Shown: positions 26,005 to 40,862, numbered from the stretch's first letter. The stretch: 40,862 bases of DNA from Clostridia bacterium (GCA_035269385.1 DATFJE010000114.1:1-40862); one strand, 5' to 3'. Made by a program: numbers and translations. The notes: a model not told the origin generated them from the sequence alone.

Positions 26005-26014
26005 TTACCTACTC

Positions 26015-26242
26015 CTATTCCCCTGAATTTCTAACTTCTATTTTTTCACTTATACCCTTGCCCAGTACCAGTCTTGATCCCCTCACACTTATGACTATGG
26101 CGCTGCCCGGTTCACTTGAAATCACCTTTACTTTGACTCCCGGCGTCAACCCCATGTTGTATAACCTCATTTTAAGATTTCTTCCTGAATGTATACTGTC
26201 AATTATTACAAAGGAATCGGCTTCCGCTTCTGCAATAACCAT
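26015..26242 (-). CDS. feoA: FeoA-family protein
   Basis: 75 aa with an SH3-like FeoA pattern ...RLYNMGLTPGVKVKVIS..GSAIVISVRGSRLVLGKG. GGAGG SD. Confidence 0.85.
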   Translation of the reverse strand: MVIAEAEADSFVIIDSIHSGRNLKMRLYNMGLTPGVKVKVISSEPGSAIVISVRGSRLVLGKGISEKIEVRNSGE

Positions 26243-26269
26243 TAATCCGCCTCCGTTCTATCTTGATAT

Positions 26270-26284
26270 TGATAATCATTATCA
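26270..26284. promoter_or_regulatory. Fur box
   Basis: TGATAATCATTATCA is a perfect 7-1-7 palindrome identical to the consensus TGATAATnATTATCA. It lies between the predicted -10 and the feoA RBS. Confidence 0.7.
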
Positions 26285-26297
26285 ATGCCTATGAATA

Positions 26298-26326
26298 ATT
26301 TTACCACCCTTTTCGATGGTTGTAAA
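26298..26326 (-). promoter_or_regulatory. sigma-70-type promoter of the feo operon
   Basis: The minus strand reads TTTACA-17 nt-TAAAAT. The Fur box starts about 13 nt downstream of the -10. Confidence 0.5.
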
Positions 26327-26425
26327 GAGTTCTATTAAAATAATGTTCTCTAATATTATGCCACCATTTTGAACATATGTCCATAATAAGATCGTCCTTT
26401 ATTGGCAGTCTTGTGTGCTTAGGGT

Positions 26426-26470
26426 AAAAAAAAAGAATCGCACCGCATTTGATTTCGGTCCAATTCTTTT
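26426..26470 (-). terminator. Rho-independent terminator after the DUF1295 gene
   Basis: The minus strand has an imperfect 13-bp stem (AAGAATTGGACCG / CGGTGCGATTCTT, 11 of 13 paired) followed by T9. Confidence 0.6.
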
Positions 26471-26548
26471 TAAAACACAGCTTCTATTAAATCGAGTCTC
26501 AAAAGCCAAAGCCCTACCATTGAAATTTTCAGACATCATGACGATTCT

Positions 26549-27325
26549 TTATTTTTCCTTTTTCGGGAACCATGGAATGAATTTGCTGGTGCGCCTTGCG
26601 TATTCCTGAAATTCGCTGTTGTCCGCGTATTTTTTTTCGAGCATAGGGACACCCGAAACAAAGACAAGAAGAATTGTTATGGTAAGCGGACTGATTATCC
26701 CTAAAATCCCGCTTCTGGTTCCAATTCCTATAATAAAAATTCCCCACCACATTGTCGCTTCGCCAAAATAATTGGGGTGGCGCGTATATCTCCAAAGTCC
26801 TTCTTTCATTATTTTACCTTTGTTAGCGGGATTTTTGATGAACTGTTTCAGTTGCCAGTCGCCGACGGCTTCGAAAAAGAACCCCTTGACCCAAACAAGA
26901 GCTCCGATTATAGCAAGCAGCGAAAAAGATGCCTTGTCTGTCGCATTTATTGCGATCACCGGATATGCGATTACAGCCATAAAAAAGGCCTGGAGCATGA
27001 ATATTTGCAGAAAGGCCCTTGGTACAAGCCATTTTCCCCATTCTTTCCTCCATGCGGCATATCTGAAATCTTCAGGCTTTTTCCAGTTTCTTTTGATTAT
27101 ATGGTAAAAGAGCCTTAGCCCCCAAACCGTTACGAGGACAGTCGTCAAAACTCCTATTTCAGTATAGTTGCCGCCTCTTACCATAGAATACCATGCCACC
27201 ATTACGAAACCGGCTCCCCAGCCTATGTCGACTATCGAATTGTTTTTAATAATCAGGGCAACTACGAAAAATACAGAAAAATAGGCAAATATCAAAATAA
27301 TCGATTCTTTTAAAATTACACTCAT
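26549..27325 (-). CDS. DUF1295-family membrane protein (steroid 5-alpha-reductase / ICMT-like fold)
   Basis: 258 aa and polytopic. [21 protein letters not shown] is the family hallmark. ATGA overlap with the upstream gene. Confidence 0.8.
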
Positions 27326-29142
27326 GATTTTTCTCTCCTTTTCAGTTGTACCGCCACAGCCACGGCTTTCTCTCCCGCACTGAGCGCTACAACGGACGAT
27401 ACTTCAGAAATGTATTCCGGCGGCATACCCAGCAAATCTTCCAGTCCGCGCGAATAGTCATTCGCAAGAATTTCTCCCCTGTGATGAACAACTGCATATC
27501 TTTTTATACCGAATTCGTCATTGAGATTTCCCACTGTTTTCATTATTTTTTTCTTGTTGGCTTTTCTGCTGAATGCTTTCGCAAAGGATATGCCTTTGCC
27601 GTTTTCATCAAGGGAAACAATCGGTTTCAAATTCATGGCGCTTGCGAATCTTCCTTTCATAGGACTCAATCTCCCACCCTTGACCATATATTCGAAAGTG
27701 TCCACACTTACAAATATTTTTGTGGCCGGAATGCAGTCGTATATGATTTTCAGTATTTCATCTTTCTTTGCCCCTCTCGAAACTGCTTCGGCCGCCTCGT
27801 AAACAACGAGTCCCTGTGCCGCCGAATTCAGTTTTGTATCAATTACAGTTACTCTCGACCGTGTTTCTTCAGGAAGAAGCTCAAGTGCCTTTACTGCTGA
27901 ATTGAAGGTTCCACTCAAAGAAGATGAAACAAATATGCCTATTACTTCTTCATAATGGCTTAGCAGGAATGCGAATGAATTTTCAAATGATTTCAAACTC
28001 GGCTGAGAAGTCTTTGGAAAAATCGGAGACCTGCCGGCAAGCTCCCGGAATTGTTCAGGAAATATTGTCACCTTGTCGAAATAAAGATTTCCGTCTATTT
28101 CCAGGTTCATTGGAATCACAGTTATGTTTTCATTCAAAATGGTTTCTTTCGGCAAATCCGCGACAGAATCCGTGACAAGCGCGATGGTGCTTTTTTTATT
28201 GTTGACTGCAAGATATTGACCATGCATGTCGTCGATTTTTTTTTCAATCACTTTCCCATATTCGGGAATTCTCGCAAACATCTCAGCCGGCCTGTCTGTA
28301 TGGACATGGATTCTTGTGTTCCTGTTTCCTCCAGCCACGATCACACTGCTTCCGTATCCTTTAAGCATTGTCTTCAGTGCTTCGATATCAATTGATTCAT
28401 CGCTCCTGATTAGAACTTCAGAACAATATCGTTCCGATGGCATGTCCTTAACCGAAGAATGGTCATCCAAAGCCTGAATTCTGTGATCGCCTTTGTAGGA
28501 ACTCGAAACAGCATCCCTGATGTTTCCCGAATTAATCAGCTTTACTATTCCTTCGGTAAAATGGACAAATCCTTTTGCTCCCGAATCCACAACCCCCGAG
28601 TCCTTTAGAACCCTCAAAACATTCGGAGTTTCCGAAAGGGACTTGCGGACAATCTTTTGCGCATCATTCAAAAGCACTGCAAAGTCGTCGGTCATAGCGC
28701 GCGAATCGTAAACGGCCCTCGACCATTCCCTTATTACTGTAAGCATTGTCCCTTCCACAGGATCCAGCATGGCTTTGTATGCATAACCAGCCGCCTTCAT
28801 GACCGATTCTCCAAAAGACCTCGTGCAAAGCACTTCGTTGTTTTTAATTTCTATTGCTATTCCATTAATGAACTGTGCGAAAATGATTCCGGAATTGCCC
28901 CTTGCCCCCAACATTGCAGATTCTGCCAAGGACTGGAACGATTTGTCGATTCTATCGACAAATACGGTGTTTCTCAACATCGAGTTCATTGTAGACGAAA
29001 GATTGCTCCCCGTATCTCCATCTGCAACAGGGAATACATTGATTCTGTCGAGATGATCCGAATTCCTCATGACTTCCATTGCGCCCGAATGAATTGCATA
29101 GTTAAGTCTTTTTCCGTCGATATATTTTATTCTCATTTCCAT
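27322..29142 (-). CDS. DAK2-domain (FakA-like N-terminal and middle regions) fused to a complete DegV (FakB-like) fatty-acid-binding domain
   Basis: Residues 1-205 carry [15 protein letters not shown]...[10 protein letters not shown]...DSGAKG (Dak2/DhaL). Residues about 235-295 carry RYCSEVLI...[19 protein letters not shown] (FakA middle-like). Residues about 318-606 carry [12 protein letters not shown]...PKTSQPS...[11 protein letters not shown]...[12 protein letters not shown]...GGRLSP...LKPIV (DegV). Confidence 0.85.
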
Positions 29143-29198
29143 TCCCCTTGTATGAAAGTAGTATTATATATATCCCCAAATAATGTAATTCAAAGCAT

Positions 29199-29232
29199 AA
29201 AAAAAGACGCATCGACTTAAAGTCGATACGCC
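29199..29232 (-). terminator. Rho-independent terminator after the four-domain rhodanese gene
   Basis: The minus strand reads CGTATCGAC-TTTAA-GTCGATGCG followed by TCTTTTTTT. Confidence 0.65.
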
Positions 29233-29260
29233 TTTGCTGTTCTGTGATGAATGTTTAAAA

Positions 29261-31054
29261 TTATTTTACTATATCATAACCTTTGTTGGCCCAGCCGTAA
29301 GGAGCGTTAGCTTCCATTCCCATTCCGCCGTTCAAGGATACTGCATCGTATCCCATAATTCTGAGCGCTGCCGTTGTCTGGCCTGCAGTTTGTCCTGTAT
29401 AGCAGTAGACAACTGTAGTTTTATCGTTGTTGAGTGATGGGAAAGCTTCTTGCATTCCCGCAGCCCATGGAATATTGAAGGCCGTCGGAATGTGTCCCTC
29501 TGCAAAATCGTTTGCTCCTCTTACAGAAAGAACATATATGCTGTCCGGATCCTCGTCAAGTATTGCCTTGAGATTGTCTTCGCTTATTTTGTAGTTTTTA
29601 TAAATTCCCTCTGCAGCTTCAGCCAAACCGCTGTAGTATATTTCTATTGCAGATTCGATTTCATAGCCATATTCAGCAGCATTAGCCGCTCCAAAATCCG
29701 ATGCTTCAGCAACAACTGTTTCTTCATATCCCTCAACCTTGCTTATTCCCAGGTTCCATCCAAGGTTTACAGATTTTGCGTCGATTCCGGCAAAATTGAG
29801 AAGTGCAACAGTCTGTCCGGCAGTTTGGCCGGTATAGCAATATACATAAACAGGCTTGTCTGATGGAATCATGTCAAGATTGTCGCTTATTGCAGTTCCC
29901 CAAGGAGCATTTACGGCTCCCTTGATGTGTCCTTCGCCGTAAACGTCAGGCTGTCTTATGTCAAGCACGAACATGTCTTCTCCGGCCTTGACTTTTTCTA
30001 TGAAATCACCTTGCTTGATTTTATAATTGTTGTCGGGTTTTTCAGCGAAATAATTGTTTACTATTCCTTCAAGACCTTTTCCCTCATATACATCGAATCC
30101 TTTGTTGGTCCAACCGTAAGGATCATTGGCAGCCATTCCCATTCCGCCGTTCAAGGATACTGCATCGTATCCCATAATTCTGAGAGCGGCCGTTGTCTGT
30201 CCTGCAGTTTGTCCTGTGTAGCAATATACAACTACCGTTTTGTCCATGGGAATCGTGTTGAAGGATTCCTGCATTCCGGCAGCCCAAGGAATGTTGAAGG
30301 CTCTGGCTATATGCCCGCTTTCAAAATCTTCAGCTCCTCTTATTGAAAGAATGTATATGCTGTCGTCCTTTTCATCGACAAGCTTTTTAAGATTGTCTTC
30401 GCTTATCTTGTAGTTCTTGAACATTGTATCTTTTACGTCAGCCAAACCTTCATAATAGTCCGTAATTGCAACCATGATGTCTTCGTCTATTTCAGAGGCT
30501 TCGGATGAATTGAAATCGGAAGCTTCTGTTGTTGTAACTTCCTCGACTCCGTCCACTTTGCTGATTCCAAGGTTCCATCCCAAATTAACCGAGTATGCCT
30601 CGAATCCAGCGAAATTAAGGAGAGCAACAGTCTGTCCCGCAGTTTGTCCTGTGTAACAATAAACATAAACAGGCTTGTCCATGGGAAGCTTGTCAATGTT
30701 GTCGCTTATTGCTGTTCCCCAAGGCGCATTCACAGCTCCTGCTATGTGCCCCTCGTCGTAAACGTCAGGCTGCCTTATATCAAGAACAAACATGTCTTCT
30801 TCATTCTTGACTTTTTCAATAAATGCATCTTGCTTGATTTTGTAGTTGTGCGACGGCTTGTCTGCGAAATAGTCGTCGACAACAGCATCAAAGGCGCTTG
30901 ATTCGTCTCCTGATGAAACCTCTGTCGGCTCTGTTTTTTCGATTTTCTCAGCCGGTTCTGTTTGCGGCTCCGAAGCTGGCGTGCTGCATCCTGCGGCAAG
31001 CGCAATGATGAGAATTGCAACAACCATAAGTAAAAATTTATTCTTCTTGAACAT
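29261..31054 (-). CDS. exported lipoprotein with four rhodanese domains
   Basis: Lipobox LAAGC. Four copies of the catalytic-loop context VY(V/C)YCYTGQTAGQT, arranged as two near-identical two-domain units. Confidence 0.85.
   Translation of the reverse strand: MFKKNKFLLMVVAILIIALAAGCSTPASEPQTEPAEKIEKTEPTEVSSGDESSAFDAVVDDYFADKPSHNYKIKQDAFIEKVKNEEDMFVLDIRQPDVYDEGHIAGAVNAPWGTAISDNIDKLPMDKPVYVYCYTGQTAGQTVALLNFAGFEAYSVNLGWNLGISKVDGVEEVTTTEASDFNSSEASEIDEDIMVAITDYYEGLADVKDTMFKNYKISEDNLKKLVDEKDDSIYILSIRGAEDFESGHIARAFNIPWAAGMQESFNTIPMDKTVVVYCYTGQTAGQTTAALRIMGYDAVSLNGGMGMAANDPYGWTNKGFDVYEGKGLEGIVNNYFAEKPDNNYKIKQGDFIEKVKAGEDMFVLDIRQPDVYGEGHIKGAVNAPWGTAISDNLDMIPSDKPVYVYCYTGQTAGQTVALLNFAGIDAKSVNLGWNLGISKVEGYEETVVAEASDFGAANAAEYGYEIESAIEIYYSGLAEAAEGIYKNYKISEDNLKAILDEDPDSIYVLSVRGANDFAEGHIPTAFNIPWAAGMQEAFPSLNNDKTTVVYCYTGQTAGQTTAALRIMGYDAVSLNGGMGMEANAPYGWANKGYDIVK
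29264..30901 (-). repeat. intragenic direct tandem duplication, two units of 819 bp (273 codons)
   Basis: CTTTGTTGG...CCATTCCCATTCCGCCGTTCAAGGATACTGCATCGTATCCCATAATTCTGAG... starts at 29281 and again at 30100. The protein units are about 80% identical by eye. Unit edges are approximate. Confidence 0.85.
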
Positions 31055-31183
31055 GAATAGTTTTCCTCCTCTTATTTTATGTTATTTAATTAACAAATTC
31101 ATTATATCAATCACTTTGCTTTTACTATAAAACGATTTGCTAATGCAGTATTAGAAAACGCATTGACAAAATCCCGATTCATA

Positions 31184-31218
31184 AATGGCAAGCCGCTTCA
31201 TTGCGGCTTGCCATTTTA
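31184..31218 (-). terminator. Rho-independent terminator after the two-domain sulfurtransferase gene
   Basis: AATGGCAAGCCGC-loop-GCGGCTTGCCATT, a 13-bp stem, with a T-rich tail on both strands. Confidence 0.65.
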
Positions 31219-31243
31219 TAATATGGAGGAGTAAAATATATTT

Positions 31244-32155
31244 TTATGATGCGTCCTGCTCATTGAATTCAACTTTTTCACCGCTCGGTGTTTGAATTGG
31301 AAGAGCTTTGTCTGATGACCATTCCAACCACGCGCCGTCATAAAGCTTCAAGTTCTCATACCCGGCATTTGCGAGCGCAAGATATGTCTGCGCCCCTCTT
31401 ATCGACGACTTGCAGTACATTATTACAGTTGCGTCTTTTTCGATTCCATTTTCCATGTACATTATAGAAATATCCTGAGCAGACTTGTAGCTTCCGTCGG
31501 CATATTGATTTTCCACATAGTTTATATGGATTGAACTTGGAATTGTTCCTTCTTCAAATTCTTCCGTTGTCCTTGTGTCTATAAGGAATGTATCAGAATC
31601 GGGATAATTCAATTGGTCTATGACCGTGTCTATTGTGGCAACCATCGATTCGTCTAATTCATCGGCCTCATATGAAGCCTTCTCGACATCGGGCACCTCA
31701 TCCGTCACTGCCATTCCGATTTCTTCGAGGGCCTTGAGTCCTCCGCTCACTACCTTTACATCTTCATTGCCATAGGCTTTGAGAGTCCACCAGAATCTTG
31801 CCGCGTCCATGTGGTTGTTGTCGTCGTATACGATTATATCCATTCCGTTTCCTATGCCGTTATCTCCAAGTATCTTTTCGATCTGCTCTTTACCGCCAAC
31901 CATGTTCGGGAAGGGTTCGCTTACAACAATGTCCCCTCTTGTTATATTCACAGCTCCTTCAATATGGGCAACGTCATAAGCATCAGCCATTTGTGCGTCA
32001 ACCAGAACCGTTCCGTCATTTATCATCTCTGCAGCTTTTTCGGCATCCACGATAAACGGTCCGTCGGCCTGTCCTGTAGTCCCAAGACAACCCGAAAGGG
32101 CTAACAATGCCAAGACCAAGGTTAAAAGCACTACCGTTTTTAAGTATTTTTTCAT
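31244..32155 (-). CDS. exported two-domain sulfurtransferase (thiosulfate/3-mercaptopyruvate sulfurtransferase-like) lipoprotein
   Basis: Lipobox LALSGC. An inactive N-terminal rhodanese domain (VYDDNNHMDAARFWWTLKAYG) precedes a catalytic C-terminal domain (VIMYCKSSIRGAQTYLAL). Confidence 0.85.
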   Translation of the reverse strand: MKKYLKTVVLLTLVLALLALSGCLGTTGQADGPFIVDAEKAAEMINDGTVLVDAQMADAYDVAHIEGAVNITRGDIVVSEPFPNMVGGKEQIEKILGDNGIGNGMDIIVYDDNNHMDAARFWWTLKAYGNEDVKVVSGGLKALEEIGMAVTDEVPDVEKASYEADELDESMVATIDTVIDQLNYPDSDTFLIDTRTTEEFEEGTIPSSIHINYVENQYADGSYKSAQDISIMYMENGIEKDATVIMYCKSSIRGAQTYLALANAGYENLKLYDGAWLEWSSDKALPIQTPSGEKVEFNEQDAS

Positions 32156-32343
32156 AAATAATCCTCCATCCTTTTTTTATAATAGGATTGTTAATTTATC
32201 AACAATCATCACTGATATTATACAAGAAGCATTCCTTTATCCGGTATCCACTTTTTTAATATTGCATCCGATTATTAAATACGAAGAGCTTTCGCAAGAT
32301 AATGGTATAATAATCACATAATTTCGGAGGGGAGGTAAAAAGA

Positions 32344-33888
32344 ATGCATAAAATAAATAGATTCATCAAAAATAACGTCATGGAAATATTTATCCTTTTG
32401 TTGTACGCTTCAATCAGCATTTTTTTTCTTGATGAATTCCCCTTCATGCACTCTGACGAAGCTTGGCTTAGCGGCCTTTCCCAAACCGTTTTGAAGGAGG
32501 GGCGCATTGACTTGACAGAGCCGTTCTTCGACCTTTATCCAAGAACACCTCACGCAATCAAAATATTTTTTGTTGCTTTGCAAACATTCGCAATAAGGAT
32601 TTTCGGCCACAATCTGATCGGTATGAGGATGGTTTCGCTTGTTTCGAGCATCTTTTCGCTTTGTCTCTTTTATAGAATAATTATGACCCGTTTCAAGGAC
32701 AAGAATTTTGCTTTGATGACAACAATCCTTCTCGCTGTGGATATTCAATTCATATATGCTTCTCATATCGCCAGGCAAGAAAGCCTACTTTTGCTTATAA
32801 GCCTGGCTGCATACGATTATTTTCTTCGGAAAAACCCAACCACCCGCTCAAGTGCAGCCATTCTGGCGGCAATACTTTCAATAGGAATAGGCATTCATCC
32901 AAACAGCTTCATTGTCGCAATACCCTTCGGGCTTATGCTCTTTTATCGTTTTTTCAAAAAAAGAGCAAATTGGACTCATATTGTCATCTTCGTATCCGTT
33001 CTGGCGGCAGCGGCATTATTTTTTATAACTCTAAGTTTATGGATGGACCCCGACTTCATAAAAAATTACACGGAATACGGAAAAACACTGGGTGTTGGAC
33101 AAAGTCTTCTTTCCAAGTTTCTGCAAATAAGACTGTTTTATCTCAAGCTGTTCTTGCAAGTCAGCGGAACCTACTATACGCCCGACATAAGGCTTCAACT
33201 CCTGCTGATGGCTTCAGCCTTTCTTTTCGGATCGGCAAAGCTTGTCAAATCAAGAGGCGATTCGCAGGCTTTTTATCCCATGCTCGGACTTTTGGGAATA
33301 AATATTGGATATATGTTGGTCGGCCGCTACAACCAGACAAGCATTGTTTTCCTTTTCCCTTGGTTCTATATGCTTATGGCGGAACTTCTTCGCCCGTTCG
33401 CAAAATCCAGAAAAAAGATTCTCTCAGTGCTTATTGCCGCCACATTGGCGATAAGCTGTTTCCAAATTTCAATACACCCCGGCAAAAGCTATTCGTCTTA
33501 CATCGATGACATATCAAGCCTGGTCCCTCGTAACGCCCGTGTTCTTTCAAACCTCAACACAGGATATTATTTCAATCCTGAAAATCTGTTCGATTACAGG
33601 AATCTTGCACACTTGAAAGAAAATTCCTTAAGCTTCGAGGACTACATCGACAAAAACGGGATAGAGTATATACTCTACCCCGAAGAAATGGACATCATTT
33701 GGAATACCCGCCCAGTATACAACAGCCTGTACGGAAATCCCGCGGATTATTATGAATCGATGAATGCCTTCATTTCTGAAAAATGCATTCTTTTAGAAAC
33801 CTTTTGGGACGACACCTATCCAGTCAGGATTGTGAGGCTCATGGGACAAAATGAAAGAACCCTGCGAATTTACAAGGTTCTAAAATGA
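32344..33888 (+). CDS. GT-C fold glycosyltransferase, ArnT/PMT-like (GT39/GT83-type)
   Basis: 514 aa with about 11 TM helices, then a soluble tail of about 130 aa. The first extracytoplasmic loop carries an acidic motif (FLDEFPFMHSDEAWLSG), as in ArnT/PMT enzymes. GGAGGGGAGG SD and a TGGTATAAT extended -10 lie upstream. Confidence 0.7.
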   Translation: MHKINRFIKNNVMEIFILLLYASISIFFLDEFPFMHSDEAWLSGLSQTVLKEGRIDLTEPFFDLYPRTPHAIKIFFVALQTFAIRIFGHNLIGMRMVSLVSSIFSLCLFYRIIMTRFKDKNFALMTTILLAVDIQFIYASHIARQESLLLLISLAAYDYFLRKNPTTRSSAAILAAILSIGIGIHPNSFIVAIPFGLMLFYRFFKKRANWTHIVIFVSVLAAAALFFITLSLWMDPDFIKNYTEYGKTLGVGQSLLSKFLQIRLFYLKLFLQVSGTYYTPDIRLQLLLMASAFLFGSAKLVKSRGDSQAFYPMLGLLGINIGYMLVGRYNQTSIVFLFPWFYMLMAELLRPFAKSRKKILSVLIAATLAISCFQISIHPGKSYSSYIDDISSLVPRNARVLSNLNTGYYFNPENLFDYRNLAHLKENSLSFEDYIDKNGIEYILYPEEMDIIWNTRPVYNSLYGNPADYYESMNAFISEKCILLETFWDDTYPVRIVRLMGQNERTLRIYKVLK

Positions 33889-33912
33889 AAGTCCAAAAAT
33901 TAAACAATTTGC

Positions 33913-34665
33913 CTAAACCATTATTTCACTTTTTATCCGTTCCTTTTCGTCAAAATAGCTTTCTTTTGTTTTACGCAATCCCTTCCATTCATTTTTTGCG
34001 ATTCTTTTCACTTTCCCCGATTCTTTCCCCATGATCAATATCCTGTCGGAAATGTAAAGAGCCTCCTCTATGTCGTGCGTTACGAACACAACCGTCAGGC
34101 CTTTCTCCCTCCATATTCCAAGCAGCAAGTCCTGCAACGAATCTCTGGTAATCGCATCTACATTCGCGAATGGTTCGTCCATCAGGAGCAGGTCCGGTTC
34201 GGATGCCAAAGCTCTTGCAATGGCGCCTCTCTGGCGCATGCCTCCAGACAATTCGTGGGGATAATAATTGCCGTAGCCTTCAAGCCCCACCTGAGCAAGC
34301 ATGTCTGCAGTCTTTTTTTCATAAAAAGCCTTCGGCTGTTTTTTATAGCGCTTTTTGACCGGCAGGGCAATGTTGTCATGAAGGTCAAGCCAAGGAAACA
34401 ATTGATGGCTGTCCTGGAAAACCATTATCATTGAAAAGCTCGGGGCTTTTATCTTTTCGCCGCCGAGAAGCACTTGACCCGAATCTGTCTTCTCGAATCC
34501 TCCAATAACATTGAGGGCCGTGGTCTTTCCGCAACCGGAAGCACCCAAAATAGAAATTATTTCACCCTTTTCTACTTCCATGGAAAAATCCTTTAGAACA
34601 AATTTCGGTTTACCGTCCTTCAAATACTTTTTTGTGATTTTAATCGCTTCCAATGCGGTGTTCAT
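33913..34665 (-). CDS. NitT/TauT-family ABC transporter ATP-binding protein
   Basis: GASGCGKTT, LSGGMRQRGAIARAL, LLMDEPFANVD and the characteristic QDSHQLFPWL block. ATGA overlap with the permease stop favours the ATG at 34663-34665. Confidence 0.9.
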   Translation of the reverse strand: MNTALEAIKITKKYLKDGKPKFVLKDFSMEVEKGEIISILGASGCGKTTALNVIGGFEKTDSGQVLLGGEKIKAPSFSMIMVFQDSHQLFPWLDLHDNIALPVKKRYKKQPKAFYEKKTADMLAQVGLEGYGNYYPHELSGGMRQRGAIARALASEPDLLLMDEPFANVDAITRDSLQDLLLGIWREKGLTVVFVTHDIEEALYISDRILIMGKESGKVKRIAKNEWKGLRKTKESYFDEKERIKSEIMV

Positions 34666-35426
34666 TCGGTCATTCCCCATTTTTCCACTGTCCTCTTTTC
34701 TATAAATCCAAACACAAATTTCTCTACGGTTATTCCTATCAGCATTATTACTGCCAGTCCCGATACAATTCCGGCAATGTCCATAAAGACACGGCTCTTA
34801 TATATGGCCCATCCTATTCCTCCCGCGAGACCAGCCGCACCGAAAATCATTTCAGCGCTTATGAGCGCTCTCCACGCCCTCGCCCATGCAATCTTGAAGC
34901 CTGCTATTATGAAGGGTGCCGAAGCCGGTATTGAAATGCGAAATATCTGTTCTCGAATGGAAAGGCCGTAATTGTCTCCCACCTTGAAATAAATATACGG
35001 TATCGCCGCTATACCGGTAAGGACGTTCTGCATCAGCGGCCAAAATGCACCGTGGACTATTATTATTATTATTGCAGTCTTTCCTGTTCCGACCCAAAGT
35101 ATCACAAGTGGAAGCAACGCGACTCCAGGCAATGGATGAATCAAAGTAACGATTGTTTCAACAATCTTTCTAAAGCCTTCCATCTTCATGCATGCGTATC
35201 CCGTCAAGATTGCAAGCATTCCGCTGATTAGGAGCCCCTTGCCTATGAGTTCCAGAGAAAATAGAATCTGAATCGGCAAATCCCCGCCTGCCAGACCCTT
35301 GACAAGGCTTTTTGCCACATCCTCCGGCGATGGGAAAACCATAGGGTCGAGTAGGCCTGAAGATGCTCCCGCCTGCCAAAGCGCAAGAACAAAAAGTGCG
35401 GCTGCCAAACTCTTCAAACGCTTCAT
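34662..35426 (-). CDS. NitT/TauT-family ABC transporter permease
   Basis: 254 aa with 6 TM helices. EAA-like loop ...GLSIREQIFRISIPASAPFIIAGFKIAWARAW. ATGA overlap with the SBP gene. Confidence 0.88.
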   Translation of the reverse strand: MKRLKSLAAALFVLALWQAGASSGLLDPMVFPSPEDVAKSLVKGLAGGDLPIQILFSLELIGKGLLISGMLAILTGYACMKMEGFRKIVETIVTLIHPLPGVALLPLVILWVGTGKTAIIIIIVHGAFWPLMQNVLTGIAAIPYIYFKVGDNYGLSIREQIFRISIPASAPFIIAGFKIAWARAWRALISAEMIFGAAGLAGGIGWAIYKSRVFMDIAGIVSGLAVIMLIGITVEKFVFGFIEKRTVEKWGMTE

Positions 35427-36370
35427 GATCCGTCACTCCTTGTCAGATTCCCAATTTCTCCAAGATTGTCTATATATCCCCGGCTTGCCATGAAATCATG
35501 AAATTTTTCCATCCCATTGATTTCAAGAGTATACACCATGTCTTCCCTTGTTATATATTCGCGGATTTTTTCTTCATCGATCCCATATGCTCCGGAAAGA
35601 ATCGCAGAAACCTCTTTGGGATTTTCTTTCATGAAAAAAACAGCCTCAGCCAGCGCTTCCTTGAAGGCTGCCTCCCAAACAGGCCTCTTTCTTGAAAATT
35701 CATCCATTGAAACTCCCACAACAAAAGTAAACCTTTGTCCCATAGCCTCTTTTCCTGTCAAAACAACATGAGCCTCTTCGTTTTCAAGTTCCATGAAAAG
35801 GTAGGGGGGGCTCGTAAAATGACCCGAAATATCCGCTTTTGAAAGAAGGGCGTGCATTCCGTCGGGATGGGTCATTGTGACTATCCTTTCATCGAAATAC
35901 CCCGCGTCACCGAGCTCCTTTTCCGCCTCCATTGAGAGAAGCATATGCTGTATGCTTCCGGGCTGAGGAAGAGCAATACGGTCCGATTCATCAAAATCCG
36001 ACAATTCGCGTATTCCTTCATCAAGACTCACAAGTGCAACCGGAACTTCGGACAATCCCGAAAATATCTTCCATTGCATGCCTTTGTCGGCTCCTATAAG
36101 GAATGGAGGAATCGCCATGAATCCTATGTCGAGGTCCCCGGCCACCATAGCTTCCCGTATGGACGCTGTGTTCGCCATTTGCTTCCATTCAATCTCAACT
36201 CCTTCAATCCTGTCACTCAAAAAGCCTTTGTTCTTCATTATTGTCACTGGCGCGTAGGCAAGTCCGTATTGTTCGGCAATCGCCAGGCTTTCCCTTTCAT
36301 TAGAACATCCTGAAAGCAACAGAAACAGCGCAAATGCCGCCAAAATCCCCTTCATTTTTTTTGTTTTCAC
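35423..36370 (-). CDS. NMT1/SsuA-like ABC substrate-binding lipoprotein
   Basis: Signal with lipobox LLLSGC. Periplasmic-binding fold of the nitrate/sulfonate/bicarbonate/HMP family. The start is uncertain: the track gives 36388, while the GTG at 36368-36370 has an AAAGGA SD and yields MKTKKMKGILAAF.... Confidence 0.8.
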   Translation of the reverse strand: MKTKKMKGILAAFALFLLLSGCSNERESLAIAEQYGLAYAPVTIMKNKGFLSDRIEGVEIEWKQMANTASIREAMVAGDLDIGFMAIPPFLIGADKGMQWKIFSGLSEVPVALVSLDEGIRELSDFDESDRIALPQPGSIQHMLLSMEAEKELGDAGYFDERIVTMTHPDGMHALLSKADISGHFTSPPYLFMELENEEAHVVLTGKEAMGQRFTFVVGVSMDEFSRKRPVWEAAFKEALAEAVFFMKENPKEVSAILSGAYGIDEEKIREYITREDMVYTLEINGMEKFHDFMASRGYIDNLGEIGNLTRSDGS

Positions 36371-36391
36371 AAGATCAATTCCTTTCATATT

Positions 36392-37633
36392 TTAAAGGAC
36401 CGGTCCCTTTATTATCATATTTCTGCCGTTTTCATCCAGAAATTTAAGTTTTTCAAAGACTTTTCCCACTCTTCGCTTAAGCGAATCCCTGTCGTTTCCT
36501 TTGACGAGGAAATACCCGGCTCGCTGCGTCGCGTTTTTTATGTCGCCCATCTTGTCTCCCTTTGCAAAGTGGTACCCGACCTTGAACACCCCGTCAATGC
36601 TCAGAAGCTCTTTTGGGTCAGTCTGTCTGCCAATCGTTCCGGGAGATGCGAAAAACAGCTGTGCCGAAAAATGCCCGCCCGTTTTCCATGCATCGTGCTC
36701 CATTAGCTTTTCATATGAAAGGGGTCTTTTCATTATGAAATCCGTCTGCATCTTGAGTATGTCCACCCCGGTCAACTCAGGTATGGTCATATCCTCATAC
36801 GCCCCGCCTATCCTGCATGCTATTTCGTTTACCATTATCCCTTGCTTCCCGACAAGCATCTGATAGTAGATCGGACCGTTTCTAATGCCGAAAACCCTTG
36901 TTGTAAGGTCAGTCAGTTCCCTTATTTCCTTTTCACGGCAAGCCATGTGGATTGACGGAAATTGGTGGGCGCTGCAAATGCCTATGTGAACGCCGCTGTC
37001 CATGACTATCCGGTCCGTCACTGCAAGAATCTTTACACGTCCGTCTACAACCCATCCGCTAACAGTTATCTCATCATTGGGATAATAATTTTCAATAAGA
37101 ACCTCCGACTGTCTTGAAAATCCAAGCGTTTCATTGATTCGGCTTCTTACCTCTTCCACTGTGTCCAAACGGAAAACGCCTCTTTGACCCTGGCTGTCCA
37201 ATGGTTTTATCACATAAGGCGCTTTCAGATGCGATATTTCAGATTTTTTGAAATCCCCGCCAATAAACGCATATGGGAGAGTGGAAACTCCTCCCTCTGC
37301 CATTATGGTTTTCATCCTTTTCTTGTTGGTGACGTCAAGCGCCTTACCGGAATCGAAAAAATATCTCAAACCCATGTATTCGGATACGGCGGCAGCCGTA
37401 TATACCGGCTGGTCGGTTCCGGTGGTCATTACCCCGTCAACTCCATGTTTGACGGCCGTTTCAATGCATGCCTCGACGTCGAATGTGCTCGCACTGCTTT
37501 TAAATGTGCTAAGGGCCTTTCCCGGGGCATCCTCATAGTAGTCCGCCGCCACAACTTTGATACCCATTTCGTTTTCAAGCCTTTCAATGGCATTGAGCTG
37601 GCAATGGCCGGCTCCGAGCATCAAGATTTTCAT
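36392..37633 (-). CDS. ATP-grasp domain ligase
   Basis: MKILMLGAGHCQLNAIERL... pre-ATP-grasp Rossmann region, KKRMK...PYVIKPLDSQGQRGVF...VLIENYY...E.ACRIGG core. ATGA overlap with the GT2 stop sets the start at 37631-37633; the track's 20-codon extension is unsupported. Confidence 0.85.
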   Translation of the reverse strand: MKILMLGAGHCQLNAIERLENEMGIKVVAADYYEDAPGKALSTFKSSASTFDVEACIETAVKHGVDGVMTTGTDQPVYTAAAVSEYMGLRYFFDSGKALDVTNKKRMKTIMAEGGVSTLPYAFIGGDFKKSEISHLKAPYVIKPLDSQGQRGVFRLDTVEEVRSRINETLGFSRQSEVLIENYYPNDEITVSGWVVDGRVKILAVTDRIVMDSGVHIGICSAHQFPSIHMACREKEIRELTDLTTRVFGIRNGPIYYQMLVGKQGIMVNEIACRIGGAYEDMTIPELTGVDILKMQTDFIMKRPLSYEKLMEHDAWKTGGHFSAQLFFASPGTIGRQTDPKELLSIDGVFKVGYHFAKGDKMGDIKNATQRAGYFLVKGNDRDSLKRRVGKVFEKLKFLDENGRNMIIKGPVL

Positions 37634-38391
37634 AATGAAATACCATCCTCCATTTCCAGGCTCTCTATCTCGTAAAGTTTGCCGCTTTTGCAAAAGATTT
37701 TCAAAATCCTCAAATCCGAATAGTGGATTACAAGTTTAGCGAAAATTTTAAGAAGGCTTGCCGGTGTGTAGTTCGACTGTCCATGGGCTCTTTCCTCGTG
37801 GCCTAAAGCAATCCATGCTATTTTATCGGTTCTCTTTATCAATTCAGCTGACACATATACAAATCCGGAATCTTTTTTTTTGAGTTCGGCTTTGATTCCT
37901 CCGTCGAACATTCTGCAACTGCTTATGCGTATAGGTTTTTTCGTTTTCAGTATGAAGTTGAATGCCAAAAACGTCAGCTTGGAGCCTAAACGTCTGTATC
38001 TCTTGTGGGCCGGCTTCTCAGGAACTGCAAAAACCAATTCCGCGCCCTTGTCTATTTCCGCCTTCATGAGCCCCAAAATTTCGGGCGGGTGCTGAAGGTC
38101 GTCGTCAAGAGTCGCGATTATGCCGCCTCCTGCAAATTGCATACCGCAAAATGTTGCGTTTTGCTGGCCCGAATTTTTCTTTAGCTTGATTAGTTTTATC
38201 CTGCTGTCCAAATTCCTTAGTTCCCTCATTACCCGGTAGCTGTCGTCCTTGCTTCCATCATCGACCAAAATAATTTCAACCTGTCCGAAATGCCCAATTG
38301 ACGAGTCAAAAATGCTTTCACACAGGATTTTCAACGATTTGGCCCCATTGTAGACAGGAACAACTACAGACAATTTTTCCAAAGGCTCCAT
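37630..38391 (-). CDS. GT2 glycosyltransferase, polyprenyl-phosphate sugar transferase type (ArnC/GtrB/CsbB/DPM1-like)
   Basis: LSVVVPVYNGAKSL...IILVDDGSKDDS...IKLKKNSGQQNA...ATLDDDLQHPPE and the downstream ...RAHGQSNYT block typical of this subfamily. Only 253 aa. Its ATG immediately follows the TGA of the aminotransferase. Confidence 0.8.
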   Translation of the reverse strand: MEPLEKLSVVVPVYNGAKSLKILCESIFDSSIGHFGQVEIILVDDGSKDDSYRVMRELRNLDSRIKLIKLKKNSGQQNATFCGMQFAGGGIIATLDDDLQHPPEILGLMKAEIDKGAELVFAVPEKPAHKRYRRLGSKLTFLAFNFILKTKKPIRISSCRMFDGGIKAELKKKDSGFVYVSAELIKRTDKIAWIALGHEERAHGQSNYTPASLLKIFAKLVIHYSDLRILKIFCKSGKLYEIESLEMEDGISL

Positions 38392-39552
38392 TCACTCACC
38401 CCTCGCCATTTCGTGCAAAATTTTGTCTACATTCAGAAGCACATACTCCAACTCGTCGGCGTGTAGATTTTCATAAAGTGGAAGCCTCACGAGTCCAGGC
38501 GCTTTTTCGCATGTCCTCGCGAGGTCATTGTCATCATAGCCCATGGATTTTCCCATAATAGACATGTGAAGCGGCCAATAATGAGCAAAAGCCTGGATTG
38601 AAGCCTTATCCATTTCGCTTTGAAAAAATTTTCTTCTTTCAAAAGAATCAAATACTATATAAAACAGATGGGCATTGAAAACACCAACGCCGGACGGAGC
38701 TTTTGAATACTCTTTTATGAAAGAACATGCTCTGTATTTGCCAAGAAGTTTTTCATATGCATTGAAAACATCGAGACGCTTTTTAATTATGGAATCCATT
38801 TCCTCGATTTGAGCCCCCAATAGAGCCATCAAAAGGTCGGATGGCAAATACATGGATCCCTCTTCAATCCATTGGTAATGAGTTGTTTCACCACGGATGA
38901 ACCTTGCCTTGTCCGTACCTCCGTTTCTTATGGCTTCGGCTCTTTCCGCCAGATTTTCGAAGGCCTTTCCCAAAACAAGAGCTCCGCCTTCGCCGGCCTT
39001 GAAATTTTTTGTCTCGTGGAAACTGAAGCAGCCGAAATCTCCCCATGTTCCCAAATGACGGCCCGAAGCTTGGGATCCAAAAGCCTGAGCGGCATCTTCT
39101 ATCAATAAAAGCCCTTCGCAATCAGCCATTTCCCGCAATTCCATGATGTCCTTGGAAATCCCGCCATAATGCACAGATAGTATTGCACGCGTTCTTGCAT
39201 TAACTTTTTCTCTTATCTCTTCAATTCCCGAATTCATGCCTTCTGAAGCCACATCTGCAAACACCGGTTTTGCTCCCGTCTTCAAGATGCAATTAGCTGT
39301 GGACGGATAGGTAAATGAAGGCATTACGACTTCATCCCCGGGTTTCAGTCCGGAAAGGAAGGCAGCCATTTCAAGCGCATGGGTGCCGGATGTTGCAACA
39401 AGCACCCTCGCTCCTCCCAAAATATCATGAAGCTTTTTTTCCACATTCCGAGTAAATGTTCCACCTCCGGCAATAGAACCTATTTCCAGTGCTGACATTA
39501 CAGCCTTTTTTTCTTTCGGTCCGATCACCGTTCTGTTAAAGGGAATTTTCAT
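38392..39552 (-). CDS. DegT/DnrJ/EryC1/StrS-family sugar aminotransferase, WecE-like (dTDP-4-keto-6-deoxyhexose 4-aminotransferase)
   Basis: IPFNRTVIGPKEKKAV...GGGTFTRNVEKKLHDILGGARVLVATSGTHALEMAAFL..KPGDEVVMPSFTYPSTANC is co-linear with the E. coli WecE N-terminus as I recall it. FHETKN holds the PLP lysine. GGAG SD before the ATG at 39550-39552, 17 nt inside rmlB. Confidence 0.88.
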   Translation of the reverse strand: MKIPFNRTVIGPKEKKAVMSALEIGSIAGGGTFTRNVEKKLHDILGGARVLVATSGTHALEMAAFLSGLKPGDEVVMPSFTYPSTANCILKTGAKPVFADVASEGMNSGIEEIREKVNARTRAILSVHYGGISKDIMELREMADCEGLLLIEDAAQAFGSQASGRHLGTWGDFGCFSFHETKNFKAGEGGALVLGKAFENLAERAEAIRNGGTDKARFIRGETTHYQWIEEGSMYLPSDLLMALLGAQIEEMDSIIKKRLDVFNAYEKLLGKYRACSFIKEYSKAPSGVGVFNAHLFYIVFDSFERRKFFQSEMDKASIQAFAHYWPLHMSIMGKSMGYDDNDLARTCEKAPGLVRLPLYENLHADELEYVLLNVDKILHEMARGE

Positions 39553-40549
39553 TTGATTCTCCATTCTTACTTTGTCGCGACAAGTGCCAATCGACGGTTC
39601 TTTCTATTGCGTTTTCAAAATCATACGTGGGTTTCCATCCCGTATCTTTTTTCAACTTGTCTCCCCTGATTGAGTACCTGAAATCGTGGCCCTTTCTGTC
39701 TTCCACAAAATCCAGCAGCCCTTCGTTTATTTCTTTTGCCCTTAAATCGGATACATTAAGTTTCTTAGATATTTTTCTTAAGAGTATTTTAACCAATTCT
39801 ATGTTTTCCAGTTCAAAACCGGATGAAATGTTGTAAATTTCACCTTGTTTGAAATTGTTGACAATGTCAAGCAAAGCCCCGCAATGGTCATTTACATAAA
39901 TCCATTCCCTTACCTGTCTTCCTTCTCCATAAATCGGAATTTTTTTCAAGCTCAGTGCATTTTCGATTGTTTTGGGTATAAGCTTTTCGCTATGCTGGTT
40001 CTCGCCAAAATTGTTTGCCGATCGCGTTACTACAACTGGCAATCCATGCGTGTGTTTGTATGAAAGAGCGAGAAGGTCCCCCGCCGCCTTTGACGCCGAA
40101 TACGGATTTGTCGGGTTTAGGCATGCTTTCTCTGAAAATGAACCCTCGTCAATAGGTCCGTATACTTCATCCGTCGAAATCTGCATGAACCTTTCAACAC
40201 CATACTTTACAGAGAGGTCAAGCATAACGCGAAGTCCTTCGACATTCGTTCTTATGAACTTGCTGCTTTTTTCGATGCTTCTGTCCACATGGGATTCCGC
40301 GGCGAAATTGACAACGGTGTCGGGCTTATGCCGTTCGTAAAGCTTTTCCAATATGTCTTCGCAACAAATGTCTGCACGGTAAAAAATGTGCCTTTTCGAT
40401 GATTTTATGCTTTTGAAATTTTCCATACTTCCACTGTAGGTAAGCTTGTCAACATTTATGATCAAAGCGTCTTTTTCTGTCCCATGCAAAAAGCGTACAA
40501 AATGGGAGCCCACAAAACCAGCTCCCCCTGTAATAAGATATGTCTTCAT
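39536..40549 (-). CDS. rfbB: dTDP-glucose 4,6-dehydratase
   Basis: MKTYLITGGAGFVGSHF..., catalytic STDEVYG and YSASKAA blocks, 337 aa. Confidence 0.93.
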   Translation of the reverse strand: MKTYLITGGAGFVGSHFVRFLHGTEKDALIINVDKLTYSGSMENFKSIKSSKRHIFYRADICCEDILEKLYERHKPDTVVNFAAESHVDRSIEKSSKFIRTNVEGLRVMLDLSVKYGVERFMQISTDEVYGPIDEGSFSEKACLNPTNPYSASKAAGDLLALSYKHTHGLPVVVTRSANNFGENQHSEKLIPKTIENALSLKKIPIYGEGRQVREWIYVNDHCGALLDIVNNFKQGEIYNISSGFELENIELVKILLRKISKKLNVSDLRAKEINEGLLDFVEDRKGHDFRYSIRGDKLKKDTGWKPTYDFENAIERTVDWHLSRQSKNGESNENSL

Positions 40550-40602
40550 TCAACCATCCTTTTTTTTATGTTATAATGTTTTAAATAATCTTTTGAAAGG
40601 AA

Positions 40603-40830
40603 ATGATCCTATTGAAAAAAATAGACTGTCTGGGAGACATGTGTCCAATACCTGTTCTCATGTCTCAAAAGGCCTACGATGAATCATCTCCCGGAGAATC
40701 CTTCATGCTGGTGAGCGACCACAGCTGCGTTGTTGAATCTGTGCAAGACCATTTCAAAAATAAATCCGTTTCTCTTTCCGTGGATGAAGTAATGAACGGA
40801 ATATGGGAAATTACTTTTACAATGAAATGA
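40603..40830 (+). CDS. TusA/SirA-family sulfur-carrier protein
   Basis: IDCLGDMCPIPVL carries the CPxP active-site motif of TusA-like proteins. About 72-75 aa. An alternative TTG start at 40612 has better SD spacing. TATGTTATAAT -10 lies upstream. Confidence 0.8.
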   Translation: MILLKKIDCLGDMCPIPVLMSQKAYDESSPGESFMLVSDHSCVVESVQDHFKNKSVSLSVDEVMNGIWEITFTMK

Positions 40831-40862
40831 CAAATCAGCAAAAGCTCCTCTTGCCGATTTCC

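Follow-up and report, generated by a model that had tools for sequence, protein, structure and literature searches.

A putative glycosylation module within a conserved rhodanese sulfur island of salt-loving anaerobic bacteria

What is modified by an amino-sugar pathway whose closest genetic partners are rhodaneses? This question is raised by a contig of a Clostridia bacterium (GCA_035269385.1, DATFJE010000114.1:1-40862), a stretch of 40,862 nucleotides (nt) to which we refer as the window. Between positions 32344 and 40549 lie seven minus-strand genes, for nucleotide-sugar synthesis, a glycosyltransferase, an ATP-grasp ligase, and an ATP-binding cassette (ABC) importer, and a convergent gene for a membrane glycosyltransferase. 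A preliminary description made from the DNA alone took these eight genes as the whole unit and read them as a system that decorates the cell surface with an amino-dideoxyhexose, acylated with an acid that the importer might supply. We found that the unit is wider and also includes two rhodanese genes, a TusA gene, and a LysR gene, and our results partly support that reading, which we would re-center from importer-fed decoration of a surface polymer to a glycosylation module belonging to a sulfur island with extracytoplasmic rhodaneses. The features of the locus are listed below, with the sugar and transport genes first.

39536-40549, minus strand: RmlB, deoxythymidine diphosphate (dTDP)-glucose 4,6-dehydratase; first gene of the operon, accessory in the island (TIGR01181)
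38392-39552, minus strand: WecE-like sugar 4-aminotransferase, pyridoxal phosphate dependent (NF008687)
37630-38391, minus strand: GT2 glycosyltransferase of the ArnC/GtrB/DPMS type, 253 amino acids (aa); predicted polyprenyl-phosphate sugar transferase (Protein Data Bank matches)
36392-37633, minus strand: ATP-grasp carboxylate-amine ligase of the L-amino-acid ligase (LAL) type; predicted N-acylase of the sugar 4-amine (Pfam LAL_C2, ATP-grasp_4)
35423-36388, minus strand: substrate-binding protein (SBP) of a NitT/TauT-family importer; lipoprotein, lipobox LLSGC (Pfam NMT1_2)
34662-35426, minus strand: permease of the ABC importer (Pfam BPD_transp_1)
33913-34665, minus strand: ATPase of the ABC importer (Pfam ABC_tran); a 250-aa form in the public record
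32344-33888, plus strand: GT-C membrane glycosyltransferase, GT39/GT83-like, with a C-terminal extracytoplasmic domain of ~130 aa (Pfam PMT_2, AlphaFold2, Foldseek)
32156-32343, no strand: divergent control region between the GT-C and rhodanese genes, with a dyad and an extended -10 element (invariant blocks in seven related sequences)
31244-32155, minus strand: tandem-domain rhodanese lipoprotein, 303 aa; lipobox LSGC, active-site loop CKSSIRG (two Pfam Rhodanese domains)
29261-31054, minus strand: four-domain rhodanese lipoprotein, 597 aa; lipobox LAAGC, four CYTGQTAGQT active-site loops (four Pfam Rhodanese domains)
40603-40830, plus strand: TusA/YeeD/YedF-like sulfur carrier, 75 aa, CPxP motif, divergent from the operon (Pfam TusA, 47 bits; cutoff, 28.6)
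40835-40862, minus strand: 3' end of a LysR-family regulator gene, the last 8 codons (EIGKRSFC) and the stop codon; matches the LysR C terminus of the 89%-identical relative L001

Conservation of the locus and its rhodanese partners

Related islands were collected by look-ups of homologs of the ATP-grasp ligase (45 to 65% identity) and of the GT-C transferase and by a metagenome scan with a GT-C alignment; a genome scan with a single protein reached close relatives only, and the distant loci came from the protein look-ups and the metagenome scan. The ATP-grasp look-ups returned the same block in Halanaerobium praevalens, Wukongibacter (where rmlA lies inside the operon), Clostridiisalibacter, a Clostridium sp., and two further contigs, and the GT-C homologs mirrored the ATP-grasp family on shared contigs. 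Geosporobacter ferrireducens has the complete island bar the ABC importer, and Clostridium sediminicola has all of it. The block always came with rhodanese and LysR genes and mostly also with TusA, two half-size YedE/YeeE (Sulf_transp) genes, and a fusion of thioredoxin reductase and thioredoxin (TrxR-Trx); the genes outside the island varied between genomes. With hosts in the Peptostreptococcaceae, Clostridium, Geosporobacter, Wukongibacter, and Halanaerobium and with about 80 metagenome loci, the island is widely conserved in salt-loving anaerobic bacteria. A tblastn map placed the sugar and transport proteins at 41 to 53% identity and the sulfur-trafficking proteins at 68 to 96%. The block is not a chance assembly, since it is found again, with proteins 41 to 53% identical, in many genera and amid unrelated neighboring genes.

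The metagenome scan gave 172 relatives, of which 80 loci with a guanine-plus-cytosine (GC) content of 26 to 61% were retained, and the island proteins were mapped onto them. Counts were taken over the 28 loci flanked by 5 kb or more on one side and by 8 kb or more on the other. A rhodanese gene lay directly upstream of GT-C in 26 of these loci, and the ATP-grasp gene was likewise found in 26, which bears out the expectation that GT-C is co-conserved with the operon; next came YedE (24/28), GT2, SBP plus permease, and LysR (23/28 each), the DegT-family aminotransferase (21/28), TusA (19/28), the TrxR-Trx fusion (11/28), and RmlB (10/28). The 5' neighbor of the ATP-grasp gene was GT2 in 36 of 40 loci, and its 3' neighbor was the SBP gene in 29 of 39 and GT-C in 5. 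In 8 of 42 loci, GT-C was transcribed in the same direction as the sugar genes. L054 and L064 have all of rhodanese-rhodanese-GT-C-DegT-GT2-ATP-grasp in this order on a single strand, with gaps of tens to a few hundred bases between the mapped matches, and a third locus (L078) has the same one-strand order apart from DegT. The sugar operon of Clostridiisalibacter paucivorans has no adjoining GT-C; the GT-C of this organism lies elsewhere, head-to-head with a 303-aa rhodanese gene and beside YeeE genes and a CoA-disulfide-reductase/rhodanese fusion. The same partners were retained through at least six gene arrangements. GT-C is genetically locked to the sugar genes and, more tightly still, to the rhodanese lipoproteins.

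The rhodaneses that we examined all have lipoprotein or secretion signals and hence act outside the cytoplasm. For the 303-aa protein encoded beside GT-C, the top NCBIfam match was 3-mercaptopyruvate/thiosulfate sulfurtransferase. The 597-aa protein gave PspE/GlpE-type matches and carries a linker rich in Ser, Thr, Pro, and Glu after its lipid anchor; orthologs of it with one to four domains follow the first rhodanese in most loci. The Ser/Thr/Pro-rich linkers of the rhodanese lipoproteins would be compatible with PMT-like O-glycosylation, of which they are no proof. Both proteins also matched, below its cutoff, the NCBIfam model named "rhoda_near_glyco," a name which hints that curators had already noticed rhodanese domains close to glycosyltransferases. 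On the other side of the operon, the TusA gene is kept at its position in most related loci, and a full LysR protein (298 aa) is called on the same public contig as the operon; its top NCBIfam match was "selenium metabolism-associated LysR" (191 bits; cutoff, 250). The halves of the split YedE scored ~100 bits each against YedE/FdhT (cutoff, 350), and a TsuA match in the flanks had 69 bits (cutoff, 400). The selenium-linked NCBIfam matches in the flanks (LysR_Sec_metab, YedE/FdhT, YedF, and an ExtH-like rhodanese) were all below cutoff. Family scores cannot decide between sulfur and selenium, because both sets of families match below their cutoffs.

Rhodaneses of related organisms have been observed under thiosulfate. 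Booker et al. 2017 (PMC5497025) report that the abundance of three rhodaneses of Halanaerobium congolense WG8 was higher in the presence of thiosulfate, and rhodanese-like proteins of Halanaerobium, including RdlA, are implicated in thiosulfate reduction. The adjacent WG8 pair Ga0073283_11115/11116 comprises proteins of 307 and 301 aa, and a shale-metagenome sequence in the same data shares the motif FxLDIRQPDVYxEGH with the four-domain rhodanese of the window (PMC5497025). We infer that Ga0073283_11115/11116 are the rhodanese pair of the island, which would favor thiosulfate. The presumed neighbors of the WG8 rhodaneses had 1 to 3 spectral counts among the rows listed in Table S3 of the same paper (PMC5497025).

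Regulatory signals were sought in the 188-bp region between GT-C and the rhodanese gene, which shows strong conservation across seven relatives. Upstream of the GT-C promoter, at 32256-32278, is a perfect dyad, TTAATA-N11-TATTAA, which occurs once in the window compared with ~0.08 occurrences expected by chance and does not vary among close relatives; an extended -10 element, TGGTATAAT, is at 32303-32311. Variants of the dyad, TTAATAGTGCATTCAATTATCAA among them, precede GT-C in distant Halanaerobium-like loci. A T-N11-A layout is typical of LysR sites, and the dyad is a candidate binding site of the island LysR regulator. The whole island is probably one regulon under the adjacent LysR protein. 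An operator common to the three intergenic regions of the window was considered and rejected: the shared words are ribosome-binding-site complements only, and the dyad occurs only upstream of GT-C. An Rfam scan of positions 26000 to 40862 at E values up to 0.1 gave no riboswitch or other RNA element.

Downstream of both rhodanese genes are strong stem-loops, at 31183-31216 (AAATGGCAAGCCGC-TTCA-TTGCGGCTTGCCATTT) and at 29206-29231 (GACGCATCGACTT-AAAGTCGATACGC), which suggests that the two rhodaneses are separate transcription units. The TrxR-Trx fusion (2554-3819, minus strand, in L001) has a cysteine-rich C-terminal tail, CECSCSSCECSC, whose composition suggests binding of polysulfide, selenium, or a metal. 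Beyond the rhodaneses, minus-strand genes at 26549-29142 encode a DAK2-FakA-like-DegV fusion (606 aa) and a DUF1295 membrane protein; these are probably outside the system, since they are syntenic only in L001, L002, L004, and L009 and not in the distant islands. Farther out, glucose-6-phosphate dehydrogenase and a 6-phosphogluconate-dehydrogenase-like gene (18717-21072, minus strand) beside a second LysR gene look like ordinary metabolism, with no apparent connection to the island.

The operon and its predicted sugar pathway

A listing of open reading frames (ORFs) for positions 29000 to 40862 contained all eight genes with the boundaries first assigned to them. We inspected the junctions base by base; the public gene calls of the source contig (55,428 bp; proteins HKL10880-86), which belongs to a metagenome-assembled genome, agree on the starts, and their annotations are generic. 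The aminotransferase gene has candidate ATG codons at 39564 and 39552. The latter, which has GGAG 7 nt upstream and is used by the public gene call (386 aa), overlaps the end of the RmlB gene (stop codon, 39536-39538) by 17 nt. The aminotransferase TGA abuts the GT2 ATG (38392/38391), and ATGA overlaps join GT2 to the ATP-grasp gene (37630-37633) and SBP to permease (35423-35426). From the ATP-grasp TAA to the SBP start there are 3 nt with the first ATG, 21 nt with a GTG, and 36 nt with the next ATG; permease and ATPase share an ATGA overlap if the latter starts at 34665 and a 19-nt overlap if it starts at 34680. The GT-C gene ends at 33888 and the ATPase gene at 33913, leaving a convergent gap of 24 bp. 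The ORF list and the base-level reading of the junctions bear out seven tightly coupled minus-strand genes facing a convergent GT-C, and Pfam and NCBIfam profile searches confirmed the family names given to all eight in the preliminary description.

RmlB scored 382 bits against NCBIfam TIGR01181 (cutoff, 365.1), and the aminotransferase scored 382 bits against NF008687, the WecE transaminase (cutoff, 375). The nearest solved relatives of the aminotransferase are of the Escherichia coli WecE type (4piw/6blg; E value, 3e-73; 250 bits), versus 131 bits for the best ArnB-like structure. From these matches, the enzyme is predicted to turn dTDP-4-keto-6-deoxyglucose into a dTDP-4-amino-4,6-dideoxyhexose, of which the Fuc4N and Qui4N forms are indistinguishable by sequence. 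For the proposed supply of a dTDP-sugar by RmlB, both the RmlB and the WecE-like calls pass their cutoffs, but RmlB stands outside the conserved core.

The third enzyme of the predicted pathway is the ATP-grasp ligase, which passes the Pfam LAL_C2 cutoff (39.5 bits; cutoff, 29.4) and matches ATP-grasp_4. Its AlphaFold2 model (predicted local distance difference test [pLDDT] score, 93.6) was matched by Foldseek to 4dim and the LAL BL00235 at template modeling (TM) scores of 0.81 to 0.85 and also to YwfE/BacD and RizA; in a profile search of solved structures, 4dim had an E value of 2.6e-32 and the LALs had 1e-12. The sequence of 4dim, the nearest solved relative, was rebuilt from the alignment and used to look up its family, members of which lie in capsule loci with a PglF-like dehydratase, DegT, ATP-grasp, a PglC-like transferase, and ATP-grasp. 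One member, P0280, is fused to a PglC-type transferase domain. The ATP-grasp enzyme of a capsule locus directly after DegT is 24% identical to that of the window over the full length (E value, 2e-34). In Bacillus cereus, the aminotransferase Pat and the ATP-grasp enzyme Pyl make UDP (uridine diphosphate)-yelosamine, with Pyl joining 2-oxoglutarate to a UDP-4-amino sugar (PMC11626204 and PMC8987622, citing Hwang et al. 2014). Given the Pyl precedent and the capsule-locus homologs after DegT, acylation of a sugar 4-amine by ATP-grasp enzymes is a recurring, biochemically precedented theme, and by analogy the window enzyme is predicted to acylate the sugar 4-amine, with an acid that need not be an amino acid. 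The suggestion that an ATP-grasp ligase takes the place of the usual N-acyltransferase thus gains a biochemical precedent and a parallel in capsule loci.

Capsule loci of Anaerococcus and Lacrimispora (L098, 3932-10203; L099, 1580-10206) carry two LAL-type ATP-grasp genes flanking a PglC-like transferase gene. 4dim, deposited as "phosphoribosylglycinamide synthetase," is probably misnamed. The Klebsiella ATP-grasp protein CfmP was considered as a described relative and rejected, as it is an unrelated TupA-like enzyme.

The closest solved relatives of the GT2 are three ArnC structures (E value, 1.4e-21 over residues 3 to 231), then GtrB (sll0501; 1.6e-14) and an archaeal DPMS (1e-12), in agreement with its initial assignment to the polyprenyl-phosphate type and not to the polymerizing transferases. 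It contains DxDLQxPPE and ERxxGxS(K/N)Y motifs, and TLDDDLQHPPE aligns with TLDADLQNPPE on the ArnC side. Along with Pfam Glycos_transf_2, its top NCBIfam match was ArnC, at 89 bits, far under the equivalog cutoff of 529. All orthologs are 242 to 253 aa long, and each has a conserved amphipathic C-terminal helix. The protein is best described as an anchor-less ArnC relative, predicted to load the sugar onto polyprenyl phosphate. An ArnC/GtrB-type GT2 together with a GT-C is the standard lipid-carrier route.

GT-C matched Pfam PMT_2 with 38.4 bits (cutoff, 26.1) and passed the PMT threshold as well. A sequence search against solved GT-C structures gave no match; its AlphaFold2 model (pLDDT, 85.1; predicted TM score, 0.87) was matched by Foldseek to STT3, ALG12, ArnT (5f15; TM score, 0.60), AglB, and PglB. 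The first-loop motif PFxHSDExW, with H36-S-D38-E39, is invariant in an alignment of 30 GT-C sequences. The score against the ArnT NCBIfam model was 25.6 bits (cutoff, 567), and Pfam found no MIR domain. Judged by the model, the enzyme is a genuine GT-C; it lies outside every characterized subfamily.

The importer parts are above Pfam cutoffs for an NMT1-type SBP, BPD_transp_1, and ABC_tran, and all specific NCBIfam models (SsuA family, TauA, and SaoX/P/A) are below theirs. The SBP gave 90 bits against the SsuA family, and its sole solved relative is TauA, a weak match (E value, 1.4e-5); the top matches of the permease were SaoP, SsuC, and TauC. We considered the SAO system of organometallic selenoprotein transport (Haft 2022 preprint) and rejected it: the scores for SaoA, SaoP, and SaoX (226, 83, and 22 bits) all fall short of the cutoffs (360, 295, and 300), the CC/CU motifs are missing, the mature SBP lacks cysteine, and genes for SaoB, L, T, C, and E, the partner proteins, are absent. 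The importer is lacking in Geosporobacter and in about one-quarter of the loci and therefore cannot be the obligatory source of the acid; it is an optional accessory that may supply the acid or take a product back up. Halanaerobium-type islands have a second NitT/TauT-like ABC transporter beyond the rhodaneses (L007, 19636-21245; left flanks of L026, L030, L036, and L049), which adjoins the YedE genes in metagenome loci.

A DedA/VTT-domain membrane protein is encoded at 22145-22810 (minus strand), ~10 kb from the operon, near the second LysR-family regulator gene (21185-22102, plus strand), and a VTT gene is also found at the edge of the Wukongibacter island (L011, 379-1083); the linkage of DedA/VTT genes is not consistent. 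DedA proteins are linked to undecaprenyl-phosphate recycling, and the DedA/VTT protein is a possible candidate for the lipid-carrier handling step.

Acceptor of the sugar and competing readings

The idea of three-component envelope glycosylation keeps its enzymes and the logic of GT2 followed by GT-C, but the tightest partner of GT-C turned out to be a rhodanese lipoprotein and not a cell-wall polymer pathway. We tentatively favor, at somewhat less than an even chance, a reading in which the locus supplies and transfers the sugar within a conserved island that handles sulfur, with the rhodanese lipoproteins or a membrane partner as the acceptor. The acceptor is placed there because GT-C lies nearly always head-to-head or in one operon with rhodanese genes. 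Halanaerobium is a diderm with a lipopolysaccharide outer membrane, and typical Clostridia are monoderm; since the hosts thus span diderms and monoderms, lipid A or teichoic acids are improbable as the common acceptor, which lipoproteins or membrane lipids can be.

In the mechanism that we propose, RmlB, encoded here or elsewhere in the genome, would dehydrate dTDP-glucose, and the WecE-like enzyme would transaminate the product to the dTDP-4-amino-4,6-dideoxyhexose. The ATP-grasp ligase, using ATP, would then amidate the 4-amine with a carboxylate. The GT2, an ArnC-like enzyme lacking transmembrane segments, would put the sugar on undecaprenyl phosphate at the inner membrane face, and after flipping, GT-C would move it to an extracytoplasmic acceptor, either the rhodanese lipoproteins or a membrane component working with them. 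The TusA carrier, the split YedE/YeeE channel, and the TrxR-Trx reductase would import sulfur of thiosulfate or sulfane origin, or perhaps selenium, so that the island would serve uptake or reduction of thiosulfate or sulfane sulfur. The order of acylation and lipid loading, the identity of the acid, the acceptor, and regulation by LysR are the steps of this scheme that we infer.

Several observations weigh against this reading. The sequences themselves give no sign of rhodanese glycosylation, and gene adjacency could reflect co-regulation only. The GT2 has no membrane segment (highest 19-residue hydropathy, 1.18). The membrane helices of ArnC and GtrB help to form the lipid-phosphate site; PpgS and the Ppm1 catalytic domain are examples of GT2 enzymes that can carry out lipid loading without a membrane anchor. 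A search of the operon and its borders gave no small membrane gene resembling GtrA or ArnE/F, and no flippase is found in the island. The locus counts are phylogenetically non-independent and include several near-duplicates, and one locus (L055) has a GT-C ortholog in an unrelated context. A lineage of three loci (L082-84; GC content, 61%; e.g., L082, 7695-19905) keeps the rhodaneses, GT-C, importer, ATP-grasp, TusA, LysR, YedE, and TrxR and has no DegT or GT2 gene within 10 kb, and several other loci lack DegT; the ATP-grasp enzyme may therefore not always act on this sugar. The ATP-grasp start in the L082-84 lineage is 92 bp from TusA.

Of the competing explanations, we consider first a general remodeling of the envelope, which comes near to the preliminary description and which we judge unlikely but deserving of weight. 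A bulk lipid or polymer would receive the acylated amino sugar, for instance to alter surface charge or to give protection under exposure to thiosulfate, sulfide, or polysulfide, and the pathway would merely be co-regulated with the sulfur genes. All pathway enzymes fit this explanation, the Arn, Gtr, and CsbB/YfhO systems target lipids or polymers, and the island, with its LysR gene and conserved dyad, resembles a single regulon. However, the spread of hosts over diderms and monoderms speaks against lipid A and teichoic acids as a shared target, the rhodanese gene stays beside GT-C even when the sugar genes are detached, and some loci have the rhodaneses and GT-C on one strand in a single gene run.

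Two further explanations, both of which we regard as improbable, give the sugar itself a part in sulfur chemistry. In one, GT-C would place on the rhodaneses, or on a membrane anchor beside them, a glycan whose acyl group, added by the ATP-grasp ligase, is thiol- or sulfur-reactive and might act as a swinging arm or shuttle for sulfane sulfur (or selenium). If this were so, sulfur from external thiosulfate would be handed via the glycan arm to the ABC importer or to the YedE-TusA-TrxR route, and glycosylation machinery would have built an extracytoplasmic sulfur carrier of a new class. The other, to which we give equally little credence, posits a small-molecule carrier, made by the aminotransferase, the ATP-grasp ligase, and the GT2: a soluble or lipid-anchored sugar amide with a thiol- or sulfur-reactive group (cysteinyl or a mercapto-acid) similar to mycothiol or bacillithiol, which the rhodaneses would load with sulfane sulfur outside the cell, the ABC importer would retrieve, and the TrxR-Trx fusion would reduce. 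Mycothiol is made by ATP-dependent ligation of cysteine to an amino sugar, and bacillithiol has the same cysteine-glucosamine core. External rhodaneses need a thiophilic acceptor, the SBP gene directly follows the ligase gene in 29/39 loci, and TusA is present, as is the TrxR-Trx fusion, which ends in a Cys-rich tail. Against such a carrier, nothing points to cysteine or a thiol acid as the substrate, an ArnC-type GT2 with a GT-C implies lipid-linked transfer and not a free metabolite, and the importer is missing from about one-quarter of the loci.

That the island is devoted to selenium, with the rhodaneses, YedE/YedF-like proteins, and LysR delivering the element and glycosylation supporting the route, seems to us very improbable. 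The top NCBIfam matches of the flanking proteins are indeed selenium-associated families, but all such scores are below curated cutoffs and those for the TsuA/TsuB thiosulfate families lie in the same range; no selD gene or selenocysteine codon was seen in the loci examined; and an apparently orthologous rhodanese pair of Halanaerobium is among those implicated in thiosulfate reduction in PMC5497025. Finally, two functionally unrelated modules traveling together as a mobile or syntenic block could have different histories, as the gap in identity between sulfur-trafficking proteins (68 to 96%) and sugar genes (41 to 53%) allows, but we give this hardly any weight, as the partners stay together despite shuffled order, GC contents of 26 to 61%, and unrelated flanks and sometimes form a one-strand run.

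Known relatives and biological meaning

The predicted pathway recalls several characterized systems. With the Arn pathway, which places 4-amino-4-deoxy-L-arabinose (L-Ara4N) on lipid A, it shares a DegT-family 4-aminotransferase, N-acylation of the sugar amine (transient or permanent), an ArnC-type GT2, and an outer-face GT-C. It differs in its sugar, a dTDP-6-deoxyhexose from RmlB and the WecE-like aminotransferase in place of UDP-Ara4N, in having an ATP-grasp ligase in place of the formyltransferase and a GT2 without transmembrane helices, and in its tie to rhodanese, TusA, and YedE; ArnA, the ArnD deformylase, and ArnE/F were not found among the eight genes or in related islands. Monoderm hosts, unlike the hosts of Arn, have no lipid A. 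Gtr-type systems (GtrA/GtrB/GtrC, CsbB/GtcA/YfhO, GacI/GacL, and PpgS/Rv3779) likewise load a lipid by a GT2 and transfer by an outer-face GT-C, whereas the present locus has no gene for a GtrA-type flippase, a donor predicted to be an acylated 4-amino-dideoxyhexose, and an acceptor that is probably not a wall polymer. In the actinobacterial O-mannosylation of lipoproteins by Ppm1/PMT, a DPM1-like GT2 forms a polyprenyl-phosphate sugar, and secreted proteins and lipoproteins are glycosylated by a GT39-type GT-C; the GT-C of the window likewise passes the PMT_2 and PMT thresholds and has Asp-Glu in its first loop. The proteins described here differ in the lack of MIR domains and in the sugar, and their protein target is putative.

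Other relatives share the sugar or the sulfur branch. The RmlB and WecE-like transaminase pair, both above equivalog cutoffs, is that of the dTDP-Fuc4NAc (N-acetylated Fuc4N) branch of enterobacterial common antigen, whose WecD acetyltransferase, WecF, and incorporation into repeat units have no counterpart here. The B. cereus UDP-yelosamine pathway (Pdeg, Pat, and Pyl), as cited in PMC11626204 and PMC8987622, has in common a DegT enzyme followed by an ATP-grasp enzyme that joins an acid to the 4-amine of a nucleotide sugar. It is built on a UDP-N-acetylhexosamine scaffold with a PglC-type phosphoglycosyl transferase that serves polymer synthesis rather than on a dTDP-hexose with GT2 and GT-C. 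The flanking genes belong to the families of YeeE/YeeD (TsuA/TsuB) thiosulfate handling and of the Halanaerobium rhodaneses (PMC5497025); these systems have no reported glycosylation module attached, and the YedE of the island is split in two and scores below family cutoffs. Full-text literature searches on the gene combination turned up no description of a glycosylation module linked to rhodanese, TusA, YedE, and TrxR, in keeping with the initial view that no system of such composition had been described.

For glycobiology, the locus would add an Arn/Gtr-like pathway operating on a dTDP-4-amino-6-deoxyhexose, an ATP-grasp acylase within such a pathway, and an anchor-less ArnC relative. For sulfur metabolism, the context is as follows: Halanaerobium and related fermenters use rhodaneses to reduce thiosulfate, which drives sulfide formation and the souring of the saline subsurface (PMC5497025), and the hand-off of sulfur from external rhodaneses and the passage of sulfane sulfur across the membrane are poorly understood (PMC11582611). 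The gene set occurs in cultured organisms, namely H. praevalens, G. ferrireducens, Wukongibacter, and C. sediminicola. From a glycosylation module locked to rhodaneses, one would expect sulfurtransferases that are glycosylated or else a sulfur acceptor built on a sugar, and the module suggests that sugar modification has a role in the handling of thiosulfate or reactive sulfur by these bacteria.

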